From Escherichia phage pEC-M719-6WT.1: a DNA stretch of 64,000 nucleotides. The DNA is taken from sequence record OQ845957.1. One strand, 5' to 3'. Shown here one piece after another: positions 56,314 through 63,554 of this stretch (its first letter is position 1; every line of letters begins with the position of its first letter). Both the position numbers and the translations under genes were made by a program. Under the pieces are notes generated by a model that saw only the letters and a list, made by a program, of their open reading frames with translations, was not told the origin of the DNA and made no database searches.

Positions 56314-57729
56314 ATGAGCGAATTATTTAACCACTCAAACCTTCATCAAGGTCGTACTGAAAATGGTGCTGTAAACCACACCTCTTCAATGTCAGCCTTG
56401 GTAGACTTCTACAAAGCTGCTGGCTCTAGCCGCAACTACGTAGAGAAACTTCCAAATCTTTTCTACAAAGCTTTACGGGAAGATATTGATGTTGCTGTAC
56501 GAATCCTGCTTCATATGCGAGATGCACGAGAAGGTATGGGTGAGCGTAAAGCGTTCAGAACTGTTTTGACTGAATCCATCAAAAGCAACATCCTAGACTC
56601 TTTCCAAGTTCTACGTATCATGGAAAAGATTTCTGAACTAGGCCGTTATGATGACTTTAAAATCTTCGTAGGTACTCGATACGAAACAGATGCTTTCAAA
56701 CAACTTGAAGCAGCACTGTTAGACCCTAATACTGCACAGTTAGCTGCAAAGTGGTTACCAAGGGTTAAGCGTCGTCATATGAACTTTGTAAACCGCTTCT
56801 GTAAGTTTGCAAAGCTAAGTCAGAAAGAGTACCGACTGTTACTGTCAGCCTTGTCTGATACAGTTGAGCAGAAGATTTCTGCAAATGCTTTTGGAGAGAT
56901 TGATTACAGTAAAATCCCTTCACTGGCTGCTGCACGTTACCAGAAGCTTTTCGGTCGTAAAGATGGTGAGCGTTACAAAGCATACATTGAAGCTCTTACT
57001 AAAGGTGAGACCAAGATTAATGCTGGTGCAGTTTACCCATACGATGTGATTAAGTCAGTAAATTACGGAAACGCTACAGTTGCCAATGAACAATGGAAAG
57101 CTTTACCAAACTGGATGGCAGATGGTGAAAACATTCTCTGCATGACAGACGTATCAAGCTCTATGACTTGGGAAAGACACGGTGCAGTTACTGCTTTAGA
57201 CATTGGTGTATCACTTGCATTGTACGTAGCAGAACGCAACACAGGTTGTTTTAAAGATGAGTTAATGGTTTACTCCAGCAGACCTCACTTTATTACACTG
57301 AGTGGAGATTTAGCACAACGTAAGCGTCAGGTAATGTCTCATGTTGAGTATGGTTCAACTAACCTTCAAGCAGCATTTGACAGAATTCTTGAAATTGGTG
57401 TTAAAAATGGCTTGACACAAGAAGCTATGCCAAGTAAGCTTATTATCTTCTCTGATATGGAATTCAATCAGGTTGATGGTGCAAATGGCCTTACTAACTT
57501 TGAAGCAATTCAGAGTAAGTACAAAAAAGCTGGATATGAGATGCCACAACTGGTATTCTGGTACTTAGCTGACCGTAACGGTAATTGCGAAGTGTCTGTA
57601 AAGGATAACGGAGTAGCAATGGTTTCAGGTTTCTCTCCAGCCACCTTAAAAGCTTTGCTTGGTGGTGAGAAGTTTGACCCAATTAGCGTTATGCTTAAAG
57701 CAGTTATGATTGAGCGTTACGACTGGTAA
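56314..57729 (+). CDS. vWA (MIDAS) domain protein with N-terminal helical domain; possibly Ro60/TROVE-like
   Basis: C-terminal MIDAS-like motif CMTDVSSSM; ~270 aa helical N-terminal region; domain order matches Ro60-type proteins (architecture only). Confidence 0.45.
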   Translation: MSELFNHSNLHQGRTENGAVNHTSSMSALVDFYKAAGSSRNYVEKLPNLFYKALREDIDVAVRILLHMRDAREGMGERKAFRTVLTESIKSNILDSFQVLRIMEKISELGRYDDFKIFVGTRYETDAFKQLEAALLDPNTAQLAAKWLPRVKRRHMNFVNRFCKFAKLSQKEYRLLLSALSDTVEQKISANAFGEIDYSKIPSLAAARYQKLFGRKDGERYKAYIEALTKGETKINAGAVYPYDVIKSVNYGNATVANEQWKALPNWMADGENILCMTDVSSSMTWERHGAVTALDIGVSLALYVAERNTGCFKDELMVYSSRPHFITLSGDLAQRKRQVMSHVEYGSTNLQAAFDRILEIGVKNGLTQEAMPSKLIIFSDMEFNQVDGANGLTNFEAIQSKYKKAGYEMPQLVFWYLADRNGNCEVSVKDNGVAMVSGFSPATLKALLGGEKFDPISVMLKAVMIERYDW

Positions 57730-57837: not shown

Positions 57838-57867
57838 TTGACAACCACTAAAAAATAGTGCTATAGT
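57838..57867 (+). promoter_or_regulatory. sigma70-like promoter (TTGACA-N18-TATAGT) for tRNA cluster, with flanking palindromes
   Basis: Palindromes AGAGATTTTAAAAAATCTCT upstream and CACTAAAAAATAGTG in spacer; first tRNA starts ~28 nt downstream. Confidence 0.5.
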
Positions 57868-57894: not shown

Positions 57895-57971
57895 CTCTGT
57901 TTAGCTCAGTTTGGTAGAGCGTTCCGTTTGGGGCGGTAAGGCCAGAGGTTCAAGTCCTCTAACAGAGACCA
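57895..57971 (+). tRNA. tRNA-Pro (anticodon TGG, tentative)
   Basis: 7-bp acceptor CTCTGTT/AACAGAG, T-arm AGAGG-TTCAAGT-CCTCT, encoded CCA. Confidence 0.55.
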
Positions 57972-57978
57972 AATTAAT

Positions 57979-58053
57979 GTCGTAGAAGGCAAATGGTTAG
58001 CCACCTGACCTTCAATCAGTTGCTCGCGGGTTCGAATCCCGTCTACGACTCCA
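57979..58053 (+). tRNA. tRNA-Glu (anticodon TTC, tentative)
   Basis: Acceptor GTCGTAG/CTACGAC, T-loop TTCGAAT, CCA end. Confidence 0.5.
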
Positions 58054-58138
58054 AATTTGACAGAAGACCAAATACAGCAAACAACTTTTACTTTTCGCGC
58101 ATAGAAAACATAAAAAGCTTGGTCTGGTCATTAAGAAT

Positions 58139-58215
58139 TGCGGGTATAGAGAAAGGGCGTCTCACATGTCTCATTAGCATGGTATCGGCAGGTTCGACTC
58201 CTGCACCCGCCTCCA
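58139..58215 (+). tRNA. tRNA with CAT anticodon (Met/Ile2/initiator unresolved); 1:72 mismatch
   Basis: Anticodon arm CATGT-CTCATTA-GCATG, T-arm GCAGG-TTCGACT-CCTGC. Confidence 0.5.
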
Positions 58216-58296
58216 AATTTACAGAAGACCGTTTACAGCAATTCAAACAATTTTATCGGAAAATTAAAATGAATACGGTCTGGTAATGTTAAACAT

Positions 58297-58373
58297 GGTT
58301 AGGAAGCACATAAGGCATGTGCGGTCGGCTGTTAACCGAATGGCACAGGGTTCGAATCCCTGACTAACCGCCA
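58297..58373 (+). tRNA. tRNA-Asn (anticodon GTT)
   Basis: Anticodon loop CTGTTAA, T-arm CAGGG-TTCGAAT-CCCTG, CCA end. Confidence 0.6.
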
Positions 58374-58383
58374 AAATTTAAAT

Positions 58384-58471
58384 GCGTCGTTATCCCGTAG
58401 ATGGAAGCGGTGGTGACTGTAAATCACTTGTCATTACGACTCGGTAGGTTCGACTCCTTCACGGCGCACCA
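58384..58471 (+). tRNA. tRNA-Tyr (anticodon GTA), class II
   Basis: 88 nt with long variable arm; anticodon loop CTGTAAA. Confidence 0.6.
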
Positions 58472-58477
58472 AACAAA

Positions 58478-58555
58478 GGTTATGTAGTTTAATTTGGTTA
58501 AAATACCTCCCTGTCACGGAGGAAGATGTGGGTTCAAGTCCCATCATAACCGCCA
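58478..58555 (+). tRNA. tRNA-Asp (anticodon GTC)
   Basis: Acceptor GGTTATG/CATAACC; anticodon arm CCTCC-CTGTCAC-GGAGG. Confidence 0.65.
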
Positions 58556-58975
58556 ATTTTGAGAGGGCTTTTTAGCCCCTCCCTTAAAGAGTTCTTACGA
58601 GTATTCTTTAAAGGAGCAGAAGACCAAATTCAGCAAGTTACTTAAAATTTCAAGCCAATTTAATTTTGAAAAATTTAAAACTTGGTCTGGTTCCAACAAA
58701 TTTACAGAAGACCGTTTACAGCAATTTAAATCTATTTCTCTCAAAAAGAAAAGGTGAAGGTTCGATTCCTTCACACGTTACGGCGTGTTGGTGTAATGGA
58801 AGCACTTTAGATAATAACGGTCTGGTAATCCTCTTTGCAGTGACTTATGGAGCTAATATATCGTCCCATGAGTGCCGATGAATTTCCTTAGCATGATTCT
58901 AGATTAGCTTAATAGGAAATGACTCTACAAGCCCTTTAGCAAGGTTTGCGTAGGTTACTGCAAAGATGATTTAAT

Positions 58976-59051
58976 GGGAGTGTAGCAGAATGGTGATGCG
59001 GCAGACTTTTAATCTGACAGGCGACGGGTTCGAATCCCTCCACTCCTACCA
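58976..59051 (+). tRNA. tRNA-Lys (anticodon TTT)
   Basis: Anticodon loop CTTTTAA; T-loop TTCGAAT; weak T-stem. Confidence 0.5.
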
Positions 59052-59055
59052 ATAT

Positions 59056-59132
59056 GGTTCAGTCGCAGATAAGGTAATGCAAGGGTTTCATAAGCCCTAT
59101 GAATGTGGGTTCGATTCCCACCTGAACCTCCA
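59056..59132 (+). tRNA. tRNA with CAT anticodon (Met or Ile2)
   Basis: Perfect acceptor GGTTCAG/CTGAACC; anticodon arm AGGGT-TTCATAA-GCCCT; T-arm GTGGG-TTCGATT-CCCAC. Confidence 0.65.
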
Positions 59133-59134
59133 AT

Positions 59135-59209
59135 TGTGGGTTAGCATAAATGGTAATGCAAACGGCTGATAACCGTTAGAAGAGGGTTCGATACCCTCAC
59201 CTACAACCA
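59135..59209 (+). tRNA. tRNA-Ile (anticodon GAT)
   Basis: Anticodon arm AACGG-CTGATAA-CCGTT; T-arm GAGGG-TTCGATA-CCCTC. Confidence 0.65.
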
Positions 59210-59224
59210 ATTTCAATAAAGTTG

Positions 59225-59253
59225 TTGACATTGAGATGTGACTACTTTATAGT
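59225..59253 (+). promoter_or_regulatory. sigma70 consensus-like promoter (TTGACA-N17-TATAGT) inside tRNA cluster
   Basis: Near-consensus hexamers with exact 17-bp spacer. Confidence 0.6.
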
Positions 59254-59486
59254 TACCTTAGTTTTCGTTAGCGTAGCGTCTATTTTGCAAACTTAAAAAT
59301 AAATGCAAACGATAATGTTTTTCTGGCAGTAGCTTAATAGGCTAAACACCAGTGAGGTCTTCCAATCCCTCATCAAAGAATTTGGCGTACTAGCCCACGG
59401 TATGATTAATAAAGTGGGCAACATTCTAAAGGGTATCCCTTATGGGGCTTGGCTTAAATGCAATGAGTACCCTTTAAAATGTTAAT
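59254..59486 (+). ncRNA. candidate structured ncRNA downstream of internal promoter
   Basis: ~230 nt with no ORF and no canonical tRNA fold; nested stems GCCCAC..GTGGGC and AAGGGTA..TACCCTT. Confidence 0.3.
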
Positions 59487-59563
59487 GCACCCTTAGTTCA
59501 ACTGGACAGAGCAAATGACTTCTAATCATTGAGTTACAGGTTCGAATCCTGTAGGGTGTTCCA
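59487..59563 (+). tRNA. tRNA-Arg (anticodon TCT)
   Basis: Anticodon arm AATGA-CTTCTAA-TCATT; T-arm ACAGG-TTCGAAT-CCTGT. Confidence 0.65.
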
Positions 59564-59623
59564 ATTTAATGGTCAAGACAACACTAGTAAGTCATCTTCG
59601 ATACATGTTAAGAGATGAACGAA

Positions 59624-59691
59624 AGTCGGAAAGTTGCTGAAGGTTAGCTACCTTCGATAGTAAGTAGGTTCGACTCCTACCTTGGCTGCCA
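59624..59691 (+). tRNA. aberrant tRNA-like element (~68 nt; D-arm not resolvable)
   Basis: Good T-arm GTAGG-TTCGACT-CCTAC and CCA end, stem GAAGG-TTAGCTA-CCTTC, but no standard D-arm or full acceptor pairing. Confidence 0.3.
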
Positions 59692-59833
59692 AATAGTTAG
59701 CAGATTGCTTAGACGACCTTAACGGGTCTCCGTGTAAGGAGGTGGTCTGTATCTCATGTTTCCAGAGCATGTAAAATATTCTGAGAAGGGGCTTTACAGT
59801 GTTGTGATAATACGGTAAGCTTCGAATTATAGT

Positions 59834-59916
59834 ATGGGACGATGTTAAGACACTAAGGCATGTGCGTAAGCCTCCAAAACTTACTCAAAGGGGTTCGAAT
59901 CCTCCGTCCCATGCCA
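59834..59916 (+). tRNA. atypical tRNA-like element (possible anticodon CCA/Trp; ~8-nt insertion between acceptor and D-stem)
   Basis: Perfect acceptor ATGGGAC/GTCCCAT, T-loop TTCGAAT, CCA end; body 83 nt without a class II variable arm. Confidence 0.35.
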
Positions 59917-59929
59917 AAGTCTTATTAGG

Positions 59930-60017
59930 GGTAGGTAGCGGCTAATGGAAGCCAAACTGTCTTGAAAACAGTTGCCACTGTAGAGATACGGTGAGGGTTC
60001 GACTCCTTTACTTACCG
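59930..60017 (+). tRNA. tRNA-Ser (anticodon TGA), class II
   Basis: Anticodon arm ACTGT-CTTGAAA-ACAGT; long variable arm; CCA not encoded. Confidence 0.6.
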
Positions 60018-60019
60018 CC

Positions 60020-60272
60020 TAATAAGATTTGAAATCCACGCTACTGTTATTACGTGCGTTCGGTTTCCTCTAACGTGTATTGGCGTACACGGCACTGATG
60101 GAGCACCTAGTAGGTGTCACGGAGAAGAGATAGTATCAAGCTCTCCAAAGGTTCTAGTCACCGGATTAAACAAGACTATGCAAAGACTGATTAGGTCTTT
60201 TTAGAGAACTTCTGAGGCAAACTATACCATTGTTGCTTTGGGGTCTTGGAAGTTCTCTACAAAGATTTTAAT
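60020..60272 (+). ncRNA. candidate structured ncRNA / spacer within tRNA cluster
   Basis: ~250 nt without ORF or tRNA fold between two tRNAs; multiple local stems. Confidence 0.25.
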
Positions 60273-60350
60273 GGGAGATTGACGGTAATTGGTAAACCTA
60301 CCATCCTTAGAAGTTGGTGTTTGAGGGTTCGAATCCCTTGTCTCCTACCA
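60273..60350 (+). tRNA. tRNA, class I length, anticodon TAG (Leu anticodon; isotype uncertain)
   Basis: Acceptor GGGAGAT/GTCTCCT, anticodon arm CCATC-CTTAGAA-GTTGG, discriminator A. Confidence 0.45.
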
Positions 60351-60357
60351 AATTAAT

Positions 60358-60433
60358 GCAGGTGTAGCAAAATGGTTATGCGGCTGACTCTTAATCAGTA
60401 AGACGATGGGTTCAATTCCCTCCACCTGTACCA
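60358..60433 (+). tRNA. tRNA-Lys (anticodon CTT, tentative)
   Basis: Anticodon arm GCTGA-CTCTTAA-TCAGT; T-loop TTCAATT. Confidence 0.5.
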
Positions 60434-60439
60434 AACATT

Positions 60440-60515
60440 GGGGATGTAGTTTACATGGTTAAAACGTAAGTTTTGCAAACTTAAGTACAGGGTTCAATTC
60501 CCTGCTTCTCCACCA
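60440..60515 (+). tRNA. tRNA-Ala (anticodon TGC)
   Basis: Anticodon arm TAAGT-TTTGCAA-ACTTA; T-arm CAGGG-TTCAATT-CCCTG. Confidence 0.6.
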
Positions 60516-60521
60516 ATTAGT

Positions 60522-60596
60522 GCATCCATAGTTTAAACGGGAAAATTACAGTCTTCCAAACTGAGGTTGAGGGTTCGATTCCCTCTGGATGCTCCA
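60522..60596 (+). tRNA. tRNA-Gly (anticodon TCC)
   Basis: Perfect acceptor GCATCCA/TGGATGC; anticodon loop CTTCCAA. Confidence 0.6.
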
Positions 60597-60610
60597 AATT
60601 AAGGTGTGAT

Positions 60611-61024
60611 ATGAAAATATGTAGTACTTGCAGAATACCAAAAGATGAAAGCTTATTCCATAAGAATAAGAACAAGAAAGATGGTCTTCAAAGTCAATGC
60701 AAAGACTGTGCAAGACTTCGTGATGCAAAGAGTTATCAAGCAAATGATAGAAGGAAAGAGTCTATTAAAAGCACTCGTAACTTCAAGAGAGAGTATAACA
60801 AGGCTCTAGCTAGAAGGTACAAAGCTTTATGTAAATGTCATATATGTGGTGAGAAAGAGCCAGTTGCACTGGATTTACACCATACAGACCCTTCCAAGAA
60901 AGATTTGAATCCTGCATCGCTTTATTCATACTCCACAAAAAGATTAAAAGATGAAATCAGAAAGTGTATTGTCTTGTGCGCTAACTGTCACAGAAAAGTA
61001 CATGCTGGTATTATTAAAGTTTAA
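60611..61024 (+). CDS. HNH endonuclease (zinc-finger type), inserted between tRNA genes
   Basis: HNH core LDLHHTDPSKK...CANCHRKVHAG plus CxxC pairs. Confidence 0.6.
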   Translation: MKICSTCRIPKDESLFHKNKNKKDGLQSQCKDCARLRDAKSYQANDRRKESIKSTRNFKREYNKALARRYKALCKCHICGEKEPVALDLHHTDPSKKDLNPASLYSYSTKRLKDEIRKCIVLCANCHRKVHAGIIKV

Positions 61025-61025
61025 T

Positions 61026-61102
61026 GCTGCTTTCGTATAATTGGCTATTACACATCCCTTGTAAGGATGGAGATGCGGGTTCAAGTCCTGTGAGCAGCAC
61101 CA
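61026..61102 (+). tRNA. tRNA-Thr (anticodon TGT)
   Basis: Anticodon arm CATCC-CTTGTAA-GGATG; acceptor GCTGCTT/GAGCAGC. Confidence 0.6.
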
Positions 61103-61198
61103 ATTTTGAGGTCAAGTGAAAGACCGCTTGAGTCAACTGAAGACCGTAACAAATTCCACGGAGTTGAGTTAGCGGCACAACTTCAGACCTCTTTCAAA

Positions 61199-61273
61199 GC
61201 TCGCTTAGTTTATATGGTAAAGCCCCATCCTTACAAGTTGGTGAAGAAGGTTCAAGTCCTTCAGCGAGTACCA
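61199..61273 (+). tRNA. tRNA-Val (anticodon TAC)
   Basis: Anticodon arm CCATC-CTTACAA-GTTGG (same stem as 60273 element); T-arm GAAGG-TTCAAGT-CCTTC. Confidence 0.55.
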
Positions 61274-61274
61274 A

Positions 61275-61352
61275 GTTCCAGTATCCCAATTGGCAGAGGA
61301 TGCAAGCTCAAACCTTGTATTAGTGACGGTTCGAATCCGTCTTGGAACACCA
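61275..61352 (+). tRNA. tRNA, class I length, anticodon CAA (Leu anticodon; isotype uncertain)
   Basis: Anticodon arm GCAAG-CTCAAAC-CTTGT; T-arm GACGG-TTCGAAT-CCGTC; discriminator A. Confidence 0.45.
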
Positions 61353-61369
61353 AATTTTAGGAGATTCCT

Positions 61370-61582
61370 ATGAAGCCTTATGGTAGACACGGTAAAGTTG
61401 AAATTGCAAGTTGTGGTTGCTGTGCTTCTCACGATGGTGAAGAAGATTACTACAAGTGGCGTACAGACCATCGTAGACGCTTTCTCAGAAGAGATAAGAA
61501 GAAAGCTAGACAGGAATCTCGAAAAGATATTGCAGAATTAGTTCAAATGGATAGAGCAGCAACCTACGAAGTTGTCTGTTAG
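61370..61582 (+). CDS. small Cys-rich basic protein (doubtful; 3' end overlaps tRNA-Arg)
   Basis: 70 aa with GGAGA RBS but ~50-nt overlap with a well-formed tRNA. Confidence 0.2.
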   Translation: MKPYGRHGKVEIASCGCCASHDGEEDYYKWRTDHRRRFLRRDKKKARQESRKDIAELVQMDRAATYEVVC

Positions 61583-61608
61583 GGGTTCGAATCCCTTATT
61601 CTGCACCA
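61532..61608 (+). tRNA. tRNA-Arg (anticodon ACG)
   Basis: Perfect acceptor GCAGAAT/ATTCTGC; anticodon arm GCAAC-CTACGAA-GTTGT. Confidence 0.65.
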
Positions 61609-61628
61609 ATTTTAAAGAGGCTATTTAA

Positions 61629-62186
61629 ATGAGATATTTGAAGTATGCTTCATGGATTTTCCTAGCTTTGCTAGAGCCATTTGCAGCAATCTTAGCAGTT
61701 ATCTTAGCACCTTTCGTAGTTCCATTCTACAATGAGAAGAAAGGTCACTTACCTTTTGGATTCAGATGGATGGAGACTTATGATAATCCAATTGACGGTG
61801 ACAAAGGCCACGTTGAACGATGGGCTAAGATTCGAAAGATTGGCAAGCTCGGTGTTTATATGCAGAGAGTTGGATGGCTCTGGAGAAACAAAGCTTATAA
61901 CTTCTCTTACCATGTATTAGGGAGAGATGTAAAAGATGTTACTAAGTGGAAAGGTAATATCAACGTAAGTTCTAACCCTGAAGATAATCAGACAGGTTAT
62001 CTCCTGATGTGGAACAGTAATGCTTGGGGATTATTCGCTTTTATACCGTCAATTAAAATCTTTGGTAAACAGTTTTACTGGAGAATTTATGTTGGATGGA
62101 AGCTTAAAAGTGTTGTCCCAGAAGAAAGAGCATTCTCAAGGGAAAGAATTATGTTGGCATTCTTTATTCATCCACTAAGAAAGTAA
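61629..62186 (+). CDS. membrane protein
   Basis: 185 aa; N-terminal hydrophobic segment IFLALLEPFAAILAVILAPFVVPF; AAAGAGG RBS. Confidence 0.35.
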   Translation: MRYLKYASWIFLALLEPFAAILAVILAPFVVPFYNEKKGHLPFGFRWMETYDNPIDGDKGHVERWAKIRKIGKLGVYMQRVGWLWRNKAYNFSYHVLGRDVKDVTKWKGNINVSSNPEDNQTGYLLMWNSNAWGLFAFIPSIKIFGKQFYWRIYVGWKLKSVVPEERAFSRERIMLAFFIHPLRK

Positions 62187-62194
62187 AGATTTAA

Positions 62195-62270
62195 AGGGGA
62201 TTAGTTTACAAGGTTAAAACCTCGGTCTTTGAAATCGAAGAAGTTGGTTCAATTCCAACATCCCCCGCCA
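62195..62270 (+). tRNA. tRNA-Gln (anticodon TTG)
   Basis: Anticodon arm TCGGT-CTTTGAA-ATCGA; perfect T-arm GTTGG-TTCAATT-CCAAC; 1:72 mismatch. Confidence 0.6.
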
Positions 62271-62272
62271 AT

Positions 62273-62351
62273 GCTCCATTACTCCAATTGGCAGAGAGGC
62301 CAGACTTAAAATCTGTGTTATGTATCGGTTCGAATCCGATATGGAGTACCA
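62273..62351 (+). tRNA. tRNA, class I length, anticodon TAA (Leu anticodon; isotype uncertain)
   Basis: Anticodon loop CTTAAAA; T-arm ATCGG-TTCGAAT-CCGAT; discriminator A. Confidence 0.45.
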
Positions 62352-62357
62352 AATATT

Positions 62358-62433
62358 AGCAGTGTAGCATAACTGGCAATGCTCCAGCCTCTGAAGCTGA
62401 AAGATTAAGGTTCAAATCCTTACACTGCTGCCA
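62358..62433 (+). tRNA. tRNA-Gln (anticodon CTG, tentative)
   Basis: Perfect acceptor AGCAGTG/CACTGCT; anticodon loop CTCTGAA. Confidence 0.5.
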
Positions 62434-62464
62434 CTTCTAAGGGTTCTTACGAGAGTCCTTAAAT

Positions 62465-62541
62465 GTGGCCTTATCATAAATGTATAATGACCCATGCTGT
62501 GAACATGGTCTATACGGGTTCGATTCCCGTAGGTCACCCCA
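62465..62541 (+). tRNA. tRNA-His (anticodon GTG)
   Basis: Anticodon arm CCATG-CTGTGAA-CATGG perfect; T-arm ACGGG-TTCGATT-CCCGT. Confidence 0.65.
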
Positions 62542-62548
62542 ATTTTAA

Positions 62549-62623
62549 TAGCTCAATTAGCTTATATGGTTAAAGCGCGTGTCTGAAAAACATGAGAACA
62601 GGGTTCAAATCCCGATGGGCTAC
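62549..62623 (+). tRNA. tRNA-Phe (anticodon GAA)
   Basis: Acceptor TAGCTCA/TGGGCTA; anticodon loop CTGAAAA; weak T-stem. Confidence 0.5.
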
Positions 62624-62650
62624 CAATTATATAGGTGCATAATGAAAGAG

Positions 62651-63376
62651 ATGACAGGACAAGGTAAAGAGATTTTCAGTCTCCTTAAATCCGGTAACGG
62701 GTTCTCTAACCCTCTTATTACTGGTGCAGCAGTTCTTGGTGGTACAGTTGCTGCTTCTCAGTTATTAATCACTTCAATTAGCTCTGTATCAGACCCAGCT
62801 ACCCAGCAAATCCTTATTGCTGCTGGCTTGACAACTGCCTTACTAAGCAGCTTTACAACAAGCCTTGGTAGCACCACTTCAACGACAACTACTTTAACTG
62901 ACTATGGACAGAAGTCTGTAGATGAGTTTTCACAGCGTATGCAAGTAGCTAAAGGTTACTCTAACGTTATGGGAGCAGCAGGTGAACAAGTTGGCTGTAC
63001 ACCGTTTAGTGGAATCATGGGAGTTGCTACTGAATACGGTAACAAGGCTATGGATTTGATTAACACCTCCATAGATGCCGTAAACAGCGTTCTAAGCGAC
63101 TTACAGGATGCAATTGATAAAGGACTAGCAACTATCTCTGACCTCGCTACACAAGCTGTTACAGCGATTAATGAAGGTATGGCAAAGATTACTGCCTACG
63201 CTAATGAAGTGGCTCAGATGATTGCAGATGAAGCAGCAATGATTGCAGAGTATCTAAAAACCAATATTAATGGTTTCCTTGCAAATGTTTTACCAGATTG
63301 GTTTAACGATGATTGTAAGACGGGTGTAATTGATACAATTGCAACTCCAGAGATGAAAGAAGCTCTAAACAAATAA
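62651..63376 (+). CDS. hypothetical membrane-associated protein
   Basis: Track ORF 62579-63376 trimmed to internal ATG past tRNA-Phe; hydrophobic segments LITGAAVLGGTVAASQLLITSI and ILIAAGLTTALLSSF. Confidence 0.35.
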   Translation: MTGQGKEIFSLLKSGNGFSNPLITGAAVLGGTVAASQLLITSISSVSDPATQQILIAAGLTTALLSSFTTSLGSTTSTTTTLTDYGQKSVDEFSQRMQVAKGYSNVMGAAGEQVGCTPFSGIMGVATEYGNKAMDLINTSIDAVNSVLSDLQDAIDKGLATISDLATQAVTAINEGMAKITAYANEVAQMIADEAAMIAEYLKTNINGFLANVLPDWFNDDCKTGVIDTIATPEMKEALNK

Positions 63377-63379
63377 TTT

Positions 63380-63472
63380 GGAAGATTAACCCTAAAAGGT
63401 AAGGGAGCAGTTTGCTAAACTGCCAGTAGCTGAGAAATCGGTGTACCAGTTCAAGTCTGGTATCTTCCTCCA
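63380..63472 (+). tRNA. tRNA-Ser (anticodon GCT), class II
   Basis: 93 nt; perfect acceptor GGAAGAT/ATCTTCC; anticodon arm GCAGT-TTGCTAA-ACTGC; long variable arm. Confidence 0.65.
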
Positions 63473-63478
63473 AATTTT

Positions 63479-63554
63479 GCATTGGTGTCAGAAATGGATA
63501 TGTACCTGTCTGCAAAATAGGTTTATGAGGGTTCGAGTCCCTTCCAATGCTCCA
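63479..63554 (+). tRNA. tRNA-Cys (anticodon GCA)
   Basis: Perfect acceptor GCATTGG/CCAATGC; anticodon loop CTGCAAA; T-loop TTCGAGT. Confidence 0.6.

Follow-up and report, generated by a model that had tools for sequence, protein, structure and literature searches.

Escherichia phage pEC-M719-6WT.1 encodes three leucine transfer RNAs (tRNAs) that lack the long variable arm. The genes, with the anticodons UAG, CAA and UAA, lie on the + strand at positions 60273..60350, 61275..61352 and 62273..62351 of a 64,000-nucleotide (nt) stretch of the sequence record OQ845957.1, called here the window, and measure 78, 78 and 79 nt. Their presence in the window as leucine tRNA genes of class I length, without the long arm, is confirmed. 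They are most likely working leucine tRNAs, charged by the host's leucyl-tRNA synthetase (LeuRS) and supplying UUA, UUG and CUN decoding to an AT-rich phage. The same three genes are annotated as tRNA-Leu of 78, 78 and 79 nt in the GenBank record of phage FelixO1, so the genes themselves are not new. It is their short-armed architecture that has gone unremarked; within the full-text library searched, no paper describes a tRNA-Leu of this kind in phages.

The tRNA caller ARAGORN, run on the whole window, returned the three genes with coordinates and anticodons identical to those of an earlier reading made from the letters alone (the sequence-only reading). It assigned neither a different anticodon position nor a long variable arm to any of them, and it found no class II leucine tRNA anywhere in the window, in line with the absence already remarked for the cluster. 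The Rfam tRNA model (RF00005; gathering score 29 bits), applied to a 7-kilobase stretch, matched the UAG, CAA and UAA genes with 40.0, 44.0 and 47.5 bits and E-values from 6e-6 to 5e-8, scores well beyond chance expectation, and each match spans model positions 1–71 of 71, i.e. the full length. In standard numbering, the variable loop is TGTTT (5 nt) in the UAG gene, ATTAGT (6 nt) in the CAA gene and GTTATGT (7 nt) in the UAA gene; ARAGORN's own counts are 4, 5 and 8. The short class I length first proposed (76–79 nt, with variable regions of 4–7 nt) is upheld, its ranges narrowing to 78–79 and 5–7 nt. In the ARAGORN drawings and bracket strings no variable stem is seen in any of the three genes, and the discriminator is A73 in each, as had been read. 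All have acceptor stems of 7 base pairs (bp), canonical TTCGAAT T loops and an encoded CCA end.

The three genes are not equally regular. Leu(CAA) has a D arm of ‘type A’, TCC-C-AATTGGCAG-A-GGA, and the D arm of Leu(UAA) is also of ‘type A’. Leu(UAG), the lowest of the three in Rfam score, has a D arm of ‘type B’, which resembles that of canonical leucine tRNAs; it carries one extra nucleotide 5′ of A14 and a mismatch, and a U30·U40 mismatch occurs in the anticodon stem. A G1·U72 wobble pair closes the acceptor stems of Leu(UAG) and Leu(UAA), as it does in Escherichia coli tRNA-Leu(UAA). The same pair was seen in 38 of 89 aligned short-armed phage leucine tRNAs (alignment columns 1 and 76), the UAG and UAA genes of the window included. 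The tag, caa and taa triplets each sit in a stem-supported loop, and both stem and loop are fixed by covariation among these 89 members. An error of hand folding, which the sequence-only reading had allowed for, is ruled out as an explanation by the ARAGORN calls, the Rfam scores, the pair counts with their covariation and the RNAalifold consensus.

The leucine features of the genes lie in the D arm, U48 and A73. In a position-by-position alignment with leuZ, leuW and leuX of E. coli MG1655, the references for the D-arm comparison, all three show U8, an unpaired position 13, the run A14 A15 Y16 Y17 G18 G19 Y20 A20a R21 A22 (Y, pyrimidine; R, purine), a D stem of 3 bp, U48 directly 5′ of the T stem, and A73. 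More broadly, they resemble the canonical class II leucine tRNAs of E. coli and of phages T4 and T5 in their leucine anticodons, A73, the U8–A14 and A15/U48 combinations and A20a, in G18G19 with an alpha region of 4 nt, in a 3-bp D stem with positions 13 and 22 unpaired, and in the G1·U72 pair of leuZ. They differ in the variable loop, of 5–7 nt without a stem as against 13–15 nt with one, so that, of the sequence features of an E. coli-type tRNA-Leu compared here, only the long class II arm is absent. They also differ in the combination of A9 and C13 in the CAA and UAA genes, unlike any of the class II leucine tRNAs sampled, and in A37 of the UAG gene, where E. coli has G37. Phage T5 itself has a class II Leu(UAG) of 85 nt. 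The three genes are members of RF00005 and have the form of a type I tRNA-Leu, i.e. a leucine anticodon together with a variable loop of 4–7 nt; they do not have that of an anticodon-shifted tRNA, for their bodies carry leucine features. In E. coli the leucine identity set comprises A73, the A15–U48 pair, G18G19, A20a and the tertiary contacts of the D loop with the T loop (Giege & Eriani 2023, PMC9976931). According to the same review, neither the anticodon nor the long arm is crucial for E. coli LeuRS, and variants without the long arm are still active. Since A73, U48, G18G19 and A20a are intact, the phage genes hold the nucleotides listed there as required and lack only the dispensable arm.

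These genes belong to a large family. Viral contigs were scanned for the D loop CCAATTGGCAGAG followed 25–50 nt further on by a T loop, a spacing that admits tRNAs of either class, and at least 120 loci were obtained. Among the matches listed, 123 of 131 phage tRNAs with this D loop have leucine anticodons, all six of which are represented, and are 74–79 nt long. The matches listed contain 177 unique short-armed leucine tRNAs, nearly all with A73 (165), U48 (174) and a 3-bp D stem (161); the corresponding numbers for 862 tRNAs of other isotypes listed from the same loci are 426, 360 and 206. The 28 class II leucine tRNAs listed from these loci have the same features as the short-armed ones, and 71 of the short-armed leucine tRNAs listed, which do not contain the search motif, display the same pattern of A73, U48 and D stem. 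An alignment of 89 diverse phage members, headed by the three window genes, has 98.3% of its stem cells paired, and all 20 stem pairs change on both sides. Its covariation score is 1.03, compared with 0.23 after shuffling and at most 0.17 with slid partners, and RNAalifold folds it into a cloverleaf without a variable stem. Two D-arm types coexist among the short-armed leucine tRNAs, one with G9 and a purine at position 13, as in class II leucine tRNAs, the other with A9 and C13. The UAG gene of the window is of the first type and the CAA and UAA genes are of the second, which was never seen among the class II leucine tRNAs sampled. The short-armed G9/R13 type is probably the product of recent arm loss.

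The window phage is Felix O1-like and belongs to the Ounavirinae. Its tRNA region matches 307 phage records, the closest being members of Suspvirus and Felixounavirus (90–92% identical), with FelixO1 at 87.6%, and the three leucine genes are conserved in >250 related phages. In 215 phage records the identity of Leu(taa) is 99% or more, in surroundings that are 86–92% identical; this near-invariance amid diverging sequence indicates purifying selection. Leu(UAG) is 88% identical to its FelixO1 orthologue, and orthologues of Leu(CAA) occur in FelixO1, mistaenkt and Erwinia phage EAP4. The CAA and UAA genes of the window are paralogues, 77% identical to each other. Short-armed leucine tRNAs are found in FelixO1, in EAP4 (caa, aag and taa), in mistaenkt, which has a different tag gene, and in the T5-like phage PMBT29. 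In the corresponding cluster of several relatives, the label ‘tRNA-OTHER’ is found. That the three genes are decaying or non-functional, and merely tRNA-like, is very unlikely. Degenerate elements do occur in the cluster, namely a tRNA-Tyr gene that is labelled a pseudogene in FelixO1 and a remnant at 58711-58780, and the 40-bit score and stem mismatches of Leu(tag) point the same way. Yet all three genes score above the Rfam gathering threshold, Leu(taa) hardly varies while its flanks diverge by 8–14%, covariation extends to all stem pairs of the family, and the genes have an encoded CCA and a canonical T loop.

Resemblance to a valine tRNA calls for closer consideration. The tRNA-Val(UAC) gene (61199..61273, + strand) has the anticodon arm CCATCCTTACAAGTTGG, which differs from the arm of Leu(UAG) at anticodon position 36 only. 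The two arms agree in 19 of 20 nt, with the common sequence CCATCCTTA-N-AAGTTGG and the U30·U40 mismatch in both. The sequence-only reading had described the stem CCATC/GTTGG as shared with an adjacent tRNA-Val(TAC); the stem is indeed shared, but the valine gene adjoins Leu(caa) and lies ∼850 bp from Leu(tag). Such a likeness could mean that these are tRNAs of other isotypes whose anticodon has mutated to a leucine triplet (e.g. UAC of tRNA-Val to UAG), charged with their original amino acid or left uncharged, as had been envisaged for all three elements, and the occurrence of the ‘type A’ D loop in tRNA-Trp of Vibrionaceae would fit the same idea. This origin is highly improbable. Leu(tag) and Val(tac) are 68% identical overall and, outside the anticodon arm, no more alike than unrelated tRNAs, whereas the T5-like Salmonella phage PMBT29 has a class I Leu(tag) with which that of the window shares 83% identity. 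The T5-like Leu(tag) itself has the U·U mismatch at the same position, in an anticodon stem CCGTC/GTCGG. All three bodies are leucine-like, with A73, U48 and the 3-bp D stem found also in class II leucine tRNAs from the same phage contigs. By established identity rules, valyl-tRNA synthetase requires C36 and tryptophanyl-tRNA synthetase requires the anticodon CCA and G73 (PMC9976931), and none of the three genes answers to either.

The alleles of the arm, moreover, assort independently among relatives. One FelixO1-like contig combines the window-type Leu(tag) arm with a different valine arm, mistaenkt combines the window-type valine arm with a different Leu(tag) gene, and FelixO1 has a Leu(tag) whose anticodon stem is fully paired. 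This independent assortment points to an anticodon arm that was exchanged, or inherited in common, within a mosaic cluster, not to a change of isotype, and a whole-gene switch from valine to leucine is rejected, the match to Val(tac) being confined to that arm. Among the explanations first put forward, the one that stands is that of non-canonical leucine isoacceptors, in view of the leucine-specific D arm, U48 and A73 that the genes keep, their recurrence in so many related phages and their place in a strongly covarying family of short-armed tRNAs with leucine anticodons only. A side observation concerns the T5-like phages. The gene between tRNA-Lys and the Gln-Gln-Gly group is a class II Leu(tag) (85 nt) in T5 and a class I Leu(tag) (77 nt) in PMBT29. 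With the arm left aside, the two are 68% identical, and one phage family may here have undergone loss of the arm or replacement of the gene.

How the three leucine tRNAs would operate can be outlined. They would be transcribed with the rest of the + strand cluster, processed by host enzymes and charged by the LeuRS of E. coli or Salmonella. The synthetase would recognize A73 and the form of the D/T elbow, i.e. A14, the A15–U48 pair, the placement of G18G19 and A20a, and neither the anticodon nor the long arm. In translation, the UAA anticodon would serve UUA and UUG, CAA would serve UUG, and UAG would serve CUA and CUG, possibly also CUU. CUU would be covered if U34 of the UAG gene carries the modification of its host counterpart. 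The GC content of the window is 39.3%, and in 68 of its open reading frames (ORFs) CUU accounts for 29.3%, CUG for only 20.1%, UUA for 19.8% and UUG for 16.6% of the leucine codons. Compared with CUG, the codons so served are much commoner in the phage. CUG makes up about half of the leucine codons in E. coli. This mechanism is well supported by sequence evidence, from which we infer that the three tRNAs are expressed, charged with leucine and used in translation.

Several points weigh against this account. Leucine charging of the phage tRNAs is itself a prediction from their sequence, and Leu(UAG) departs from regularity by its irregular D stem, the U·U mismatch in the anticodon stem and A37. 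The D loop CCAATTGGCAGAG is not specific for leucine, as it is also that of tRNA-Trp(cca) in Vibrionaceae (53 loci). The argument for leucine therefore rests on D loop, 3-bp D stem, U48 and A73 taken together, and the loop as a unique leucine marker is rejected. These tryptophan loci came from a scan of genome contigs and belong to Vibrio, Photobacterium and relatives. More serious is the behavior of the synthetase. The type I tRNA-Leu(CAA) of Streptomyces coelicolor was reportedly left uncharged by E. coli LeuRS, which is described as charging type II tRNAs only and whose C-terminal domain touches nucleotides 47f–47i of the long arm in the crystal structure (Nucleic Acids Res 2019, PMC6614811). 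Because of this contact, the charging of short-armed tRNAs may be less efficient. The S. coelicolor tRNA, however, has C48 instead of U48 and so no A15–U48 pair, which may explain the failure of the E. coli enzyme; the objection is weakened by this, not removed.

The known natural precedents for type I tRNA-Leu are those of animal mitochondria and Streptomyces, and the phage genes, which are natural type I tRNA-Leu with an identity set of the E. coli type, resemble each only in part. The S. coelicolor isoacceptor, treated as a rare exception, also has a short variable loop (5 nt) and coexists with class II leucine tRNAs and a single LeuRS. Unlike the phage tRNAs, with their U48 and A73, it has the variable loop ACAGC, and its LeuRS does not use A73 (PMC6614811). 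The phage tRNAs keep the E. coli-type set in hosts whose LeuRS is said to take type II only. In animal mitochondrial tRNA-Leu the variable loop is short and A73 and A14 serve as identity elements (PMC9976931), but the UUR and CUN species have degenerate D and T loops and a dedicated LeuRS, whereas the elbows of the phage tRNAs are fully canonical in G18G19 and T loop. A further parallel is artificial. Engineered E. coli tRNA-Leu without a variable arm, in minimalist constructs or from in vitro selection, is charged if A73 and the D/T contacts are intact (PMC9976931), and the same required set is kept in the phage genes, which are conserved natural genes and not laboratory constructs.

Short-armed leucine tRNAs are not confined to phages. 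In the scan of genome contigs, such tRNAs with the D loop CCAATTGGCAGAG occur as lone genes in many Actinomycetota chromosomes and also inside tRNA arrays of planctomycetes, cyanobacteria and other bacteria. The lone actinomycete genes include tRNA-Leu(taa) of ∼75 nt in many Actinomycetota, with examples in Amycolatopsis, Corynebacterium and Mycolicibacterium. In the literature consulted, only the CAA isoacceptor of S. coelicolor is described as type I.

In phages, short-armed leucine tRNAs are common and the loss of the arm is confined to leucine. This is seen in a second viral sample, drawn on a generic T arm plus CCA and hence not selected on leucine: 29 of 77 unique leucine genes are short-armed, in 17 contigs, as compared with none of 47 unique serine genes and none of 17 unique tyrosine genes. 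The three long-armed tRNAs of the window are likewise Ser(tga), Ser(gct) and Tyr(gta). Bacterial tyrosyl-tRNA synthetase contacts and uses the long variable arm. Seryl-tRNA synthetase requires it (PMC9976931). It is proposed that the arm was lost in leucine and not in serine or tyrosine tRNAs because LeuRS alone tolerates its absence.

The short arm might also be a selected trait, hiding phage tRNA-Leu from a host factor, for instance a defence nuclease or some regulator, that recognizes or cleaves class II tRNA-Leu through the arm. A parallel exists in mammals, where the RNase SLFN11 cleaves type II tRNAs. No bacterial defence is known to us that acts on tRNA-Leu by way of the long arm, and the present analysis brought none to light. 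Arm loss is frequent, it is found with two distinct D-arm types (G9/R13 and A9/C13), and an anti-defence role has been suggested for phage and array tRNAs (PMC12803027), all of which would suit such an escape. The idea is nevertheless improbable, as serine and tyrosine tRNAs keep their arms, short-armed leucine tRNAs also stand as lone genes in actinomycete chromosomes, and the tolerance of LeuRS together with the deletion bias of phage genomes accounts for the pattern with no added assumption. If escape were the reason, leucine decoding would persist during infection despite a tRNA-targeting factor, and an E. coli-type LeuRS would charge type I tRNA-Leu in vivo, against the published statement.

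The three genes are part of a tRNA cluster at 57895..63554 (+ strand), which holds 24 tRNAs by default ARAGORN, plus Glu and Tyr, with small ORFs and one HNH-like ORF interspersed. The class II tRNAs of this cluster, all on the + strand, are tRNA-Ser(UGA) (59930..60019, 90 nt) and tRNA-Ser(GCU) (63380..63472, 93 nt), both called by ARAGORN with the long arm kept, and tRNA-Tyr(GUA) (58384..58471, 88 nt). That serine and tyrosine are class II here had been expected; the statement holds outright for the two serine genes and with reservation for Tyr(gta), which appears only under relaxed ARAGORN settings and scores 22.8 bits in Rfam. This tyrosine gene is ∼84% identical to the T4-like tRNA-Tyr, and its orthologue is labelled a pseudogene in the FelixO1 record. 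The tRNA-Glu(ttc) gene (57979..58053, + strand) is missed by default ARAGORN and recovered under relaxed settings and by Rfam (53.7 bits). A weak tRNA-like match at 58711-58780 (29.9 bits in Rfam) is probably a tRNA remnant; its T arm GTGAAGGTTCGATTCCTTCAC is intact, its D and anticodon arms are unconvincing.

The remaining neighbors are heterogeneous. An ORF at 60611-61024, between tRNA-Gly and tRNA-Thr, has a weak match to HNH endonucleases (19.1 bits, below the Pfam cut-off), and relatives of the window phage have HNH ORFs at other positions of the cluster; these shifting positions suggest homing-endonuclease mosaicism. A 70-amino-acid ORF (61370-61582) without a Pfam match overlaps the 5′ half of tRNA-Arg(acg) (61532-61608), an overlap annotated in mistaenkt too. 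Just upstream of the cluster, a 471-amino-acid ORF (56314-57729) has matches to DUF2828 and DUF7788, and no relative of solved structure came up by sequence. At 62487-62611 there is a very weak match to Y RNA (YrlA), with 21.5 bits far under the threshold. Apart from the weak HNH match, Pfam searches of the cluster ORFs gave only domains of unknown function, and so neither a LeuRS nor a tRNA enzyme encoded close by; no synthetase was looked for in the rest of the window. The best sigma-70-like promoter match (57838..57867, + strand; TTGACA-18-TATAGT with a TG extension) immediately precedes the first tRNA, and the last one is followed by a terminator-like hairpin, both being consensus matches only. 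Promoter-like sites are not more numerous than expected by chance, and the best one is suggestive by its position alone.

The pattern among phages contradicts the textbook generalization that bacterial tRNA-Leu has a long arm. In these phages of E. coli and Salmonella, leucine tRNAs are exclusively short-armed. Leucine-only loss amounts to a natural experiment that mirrors the rules of the synthetases, that for serine needing the arm, that for tyrosine using it and LeuRS doing without it. For annotators it implies that isotype models expecting a long arm may mislabel such genes. The phage tRNAs are ready substrates for asking whether E. coli LeuRS accepts type I tRNA-Leu in vivo.

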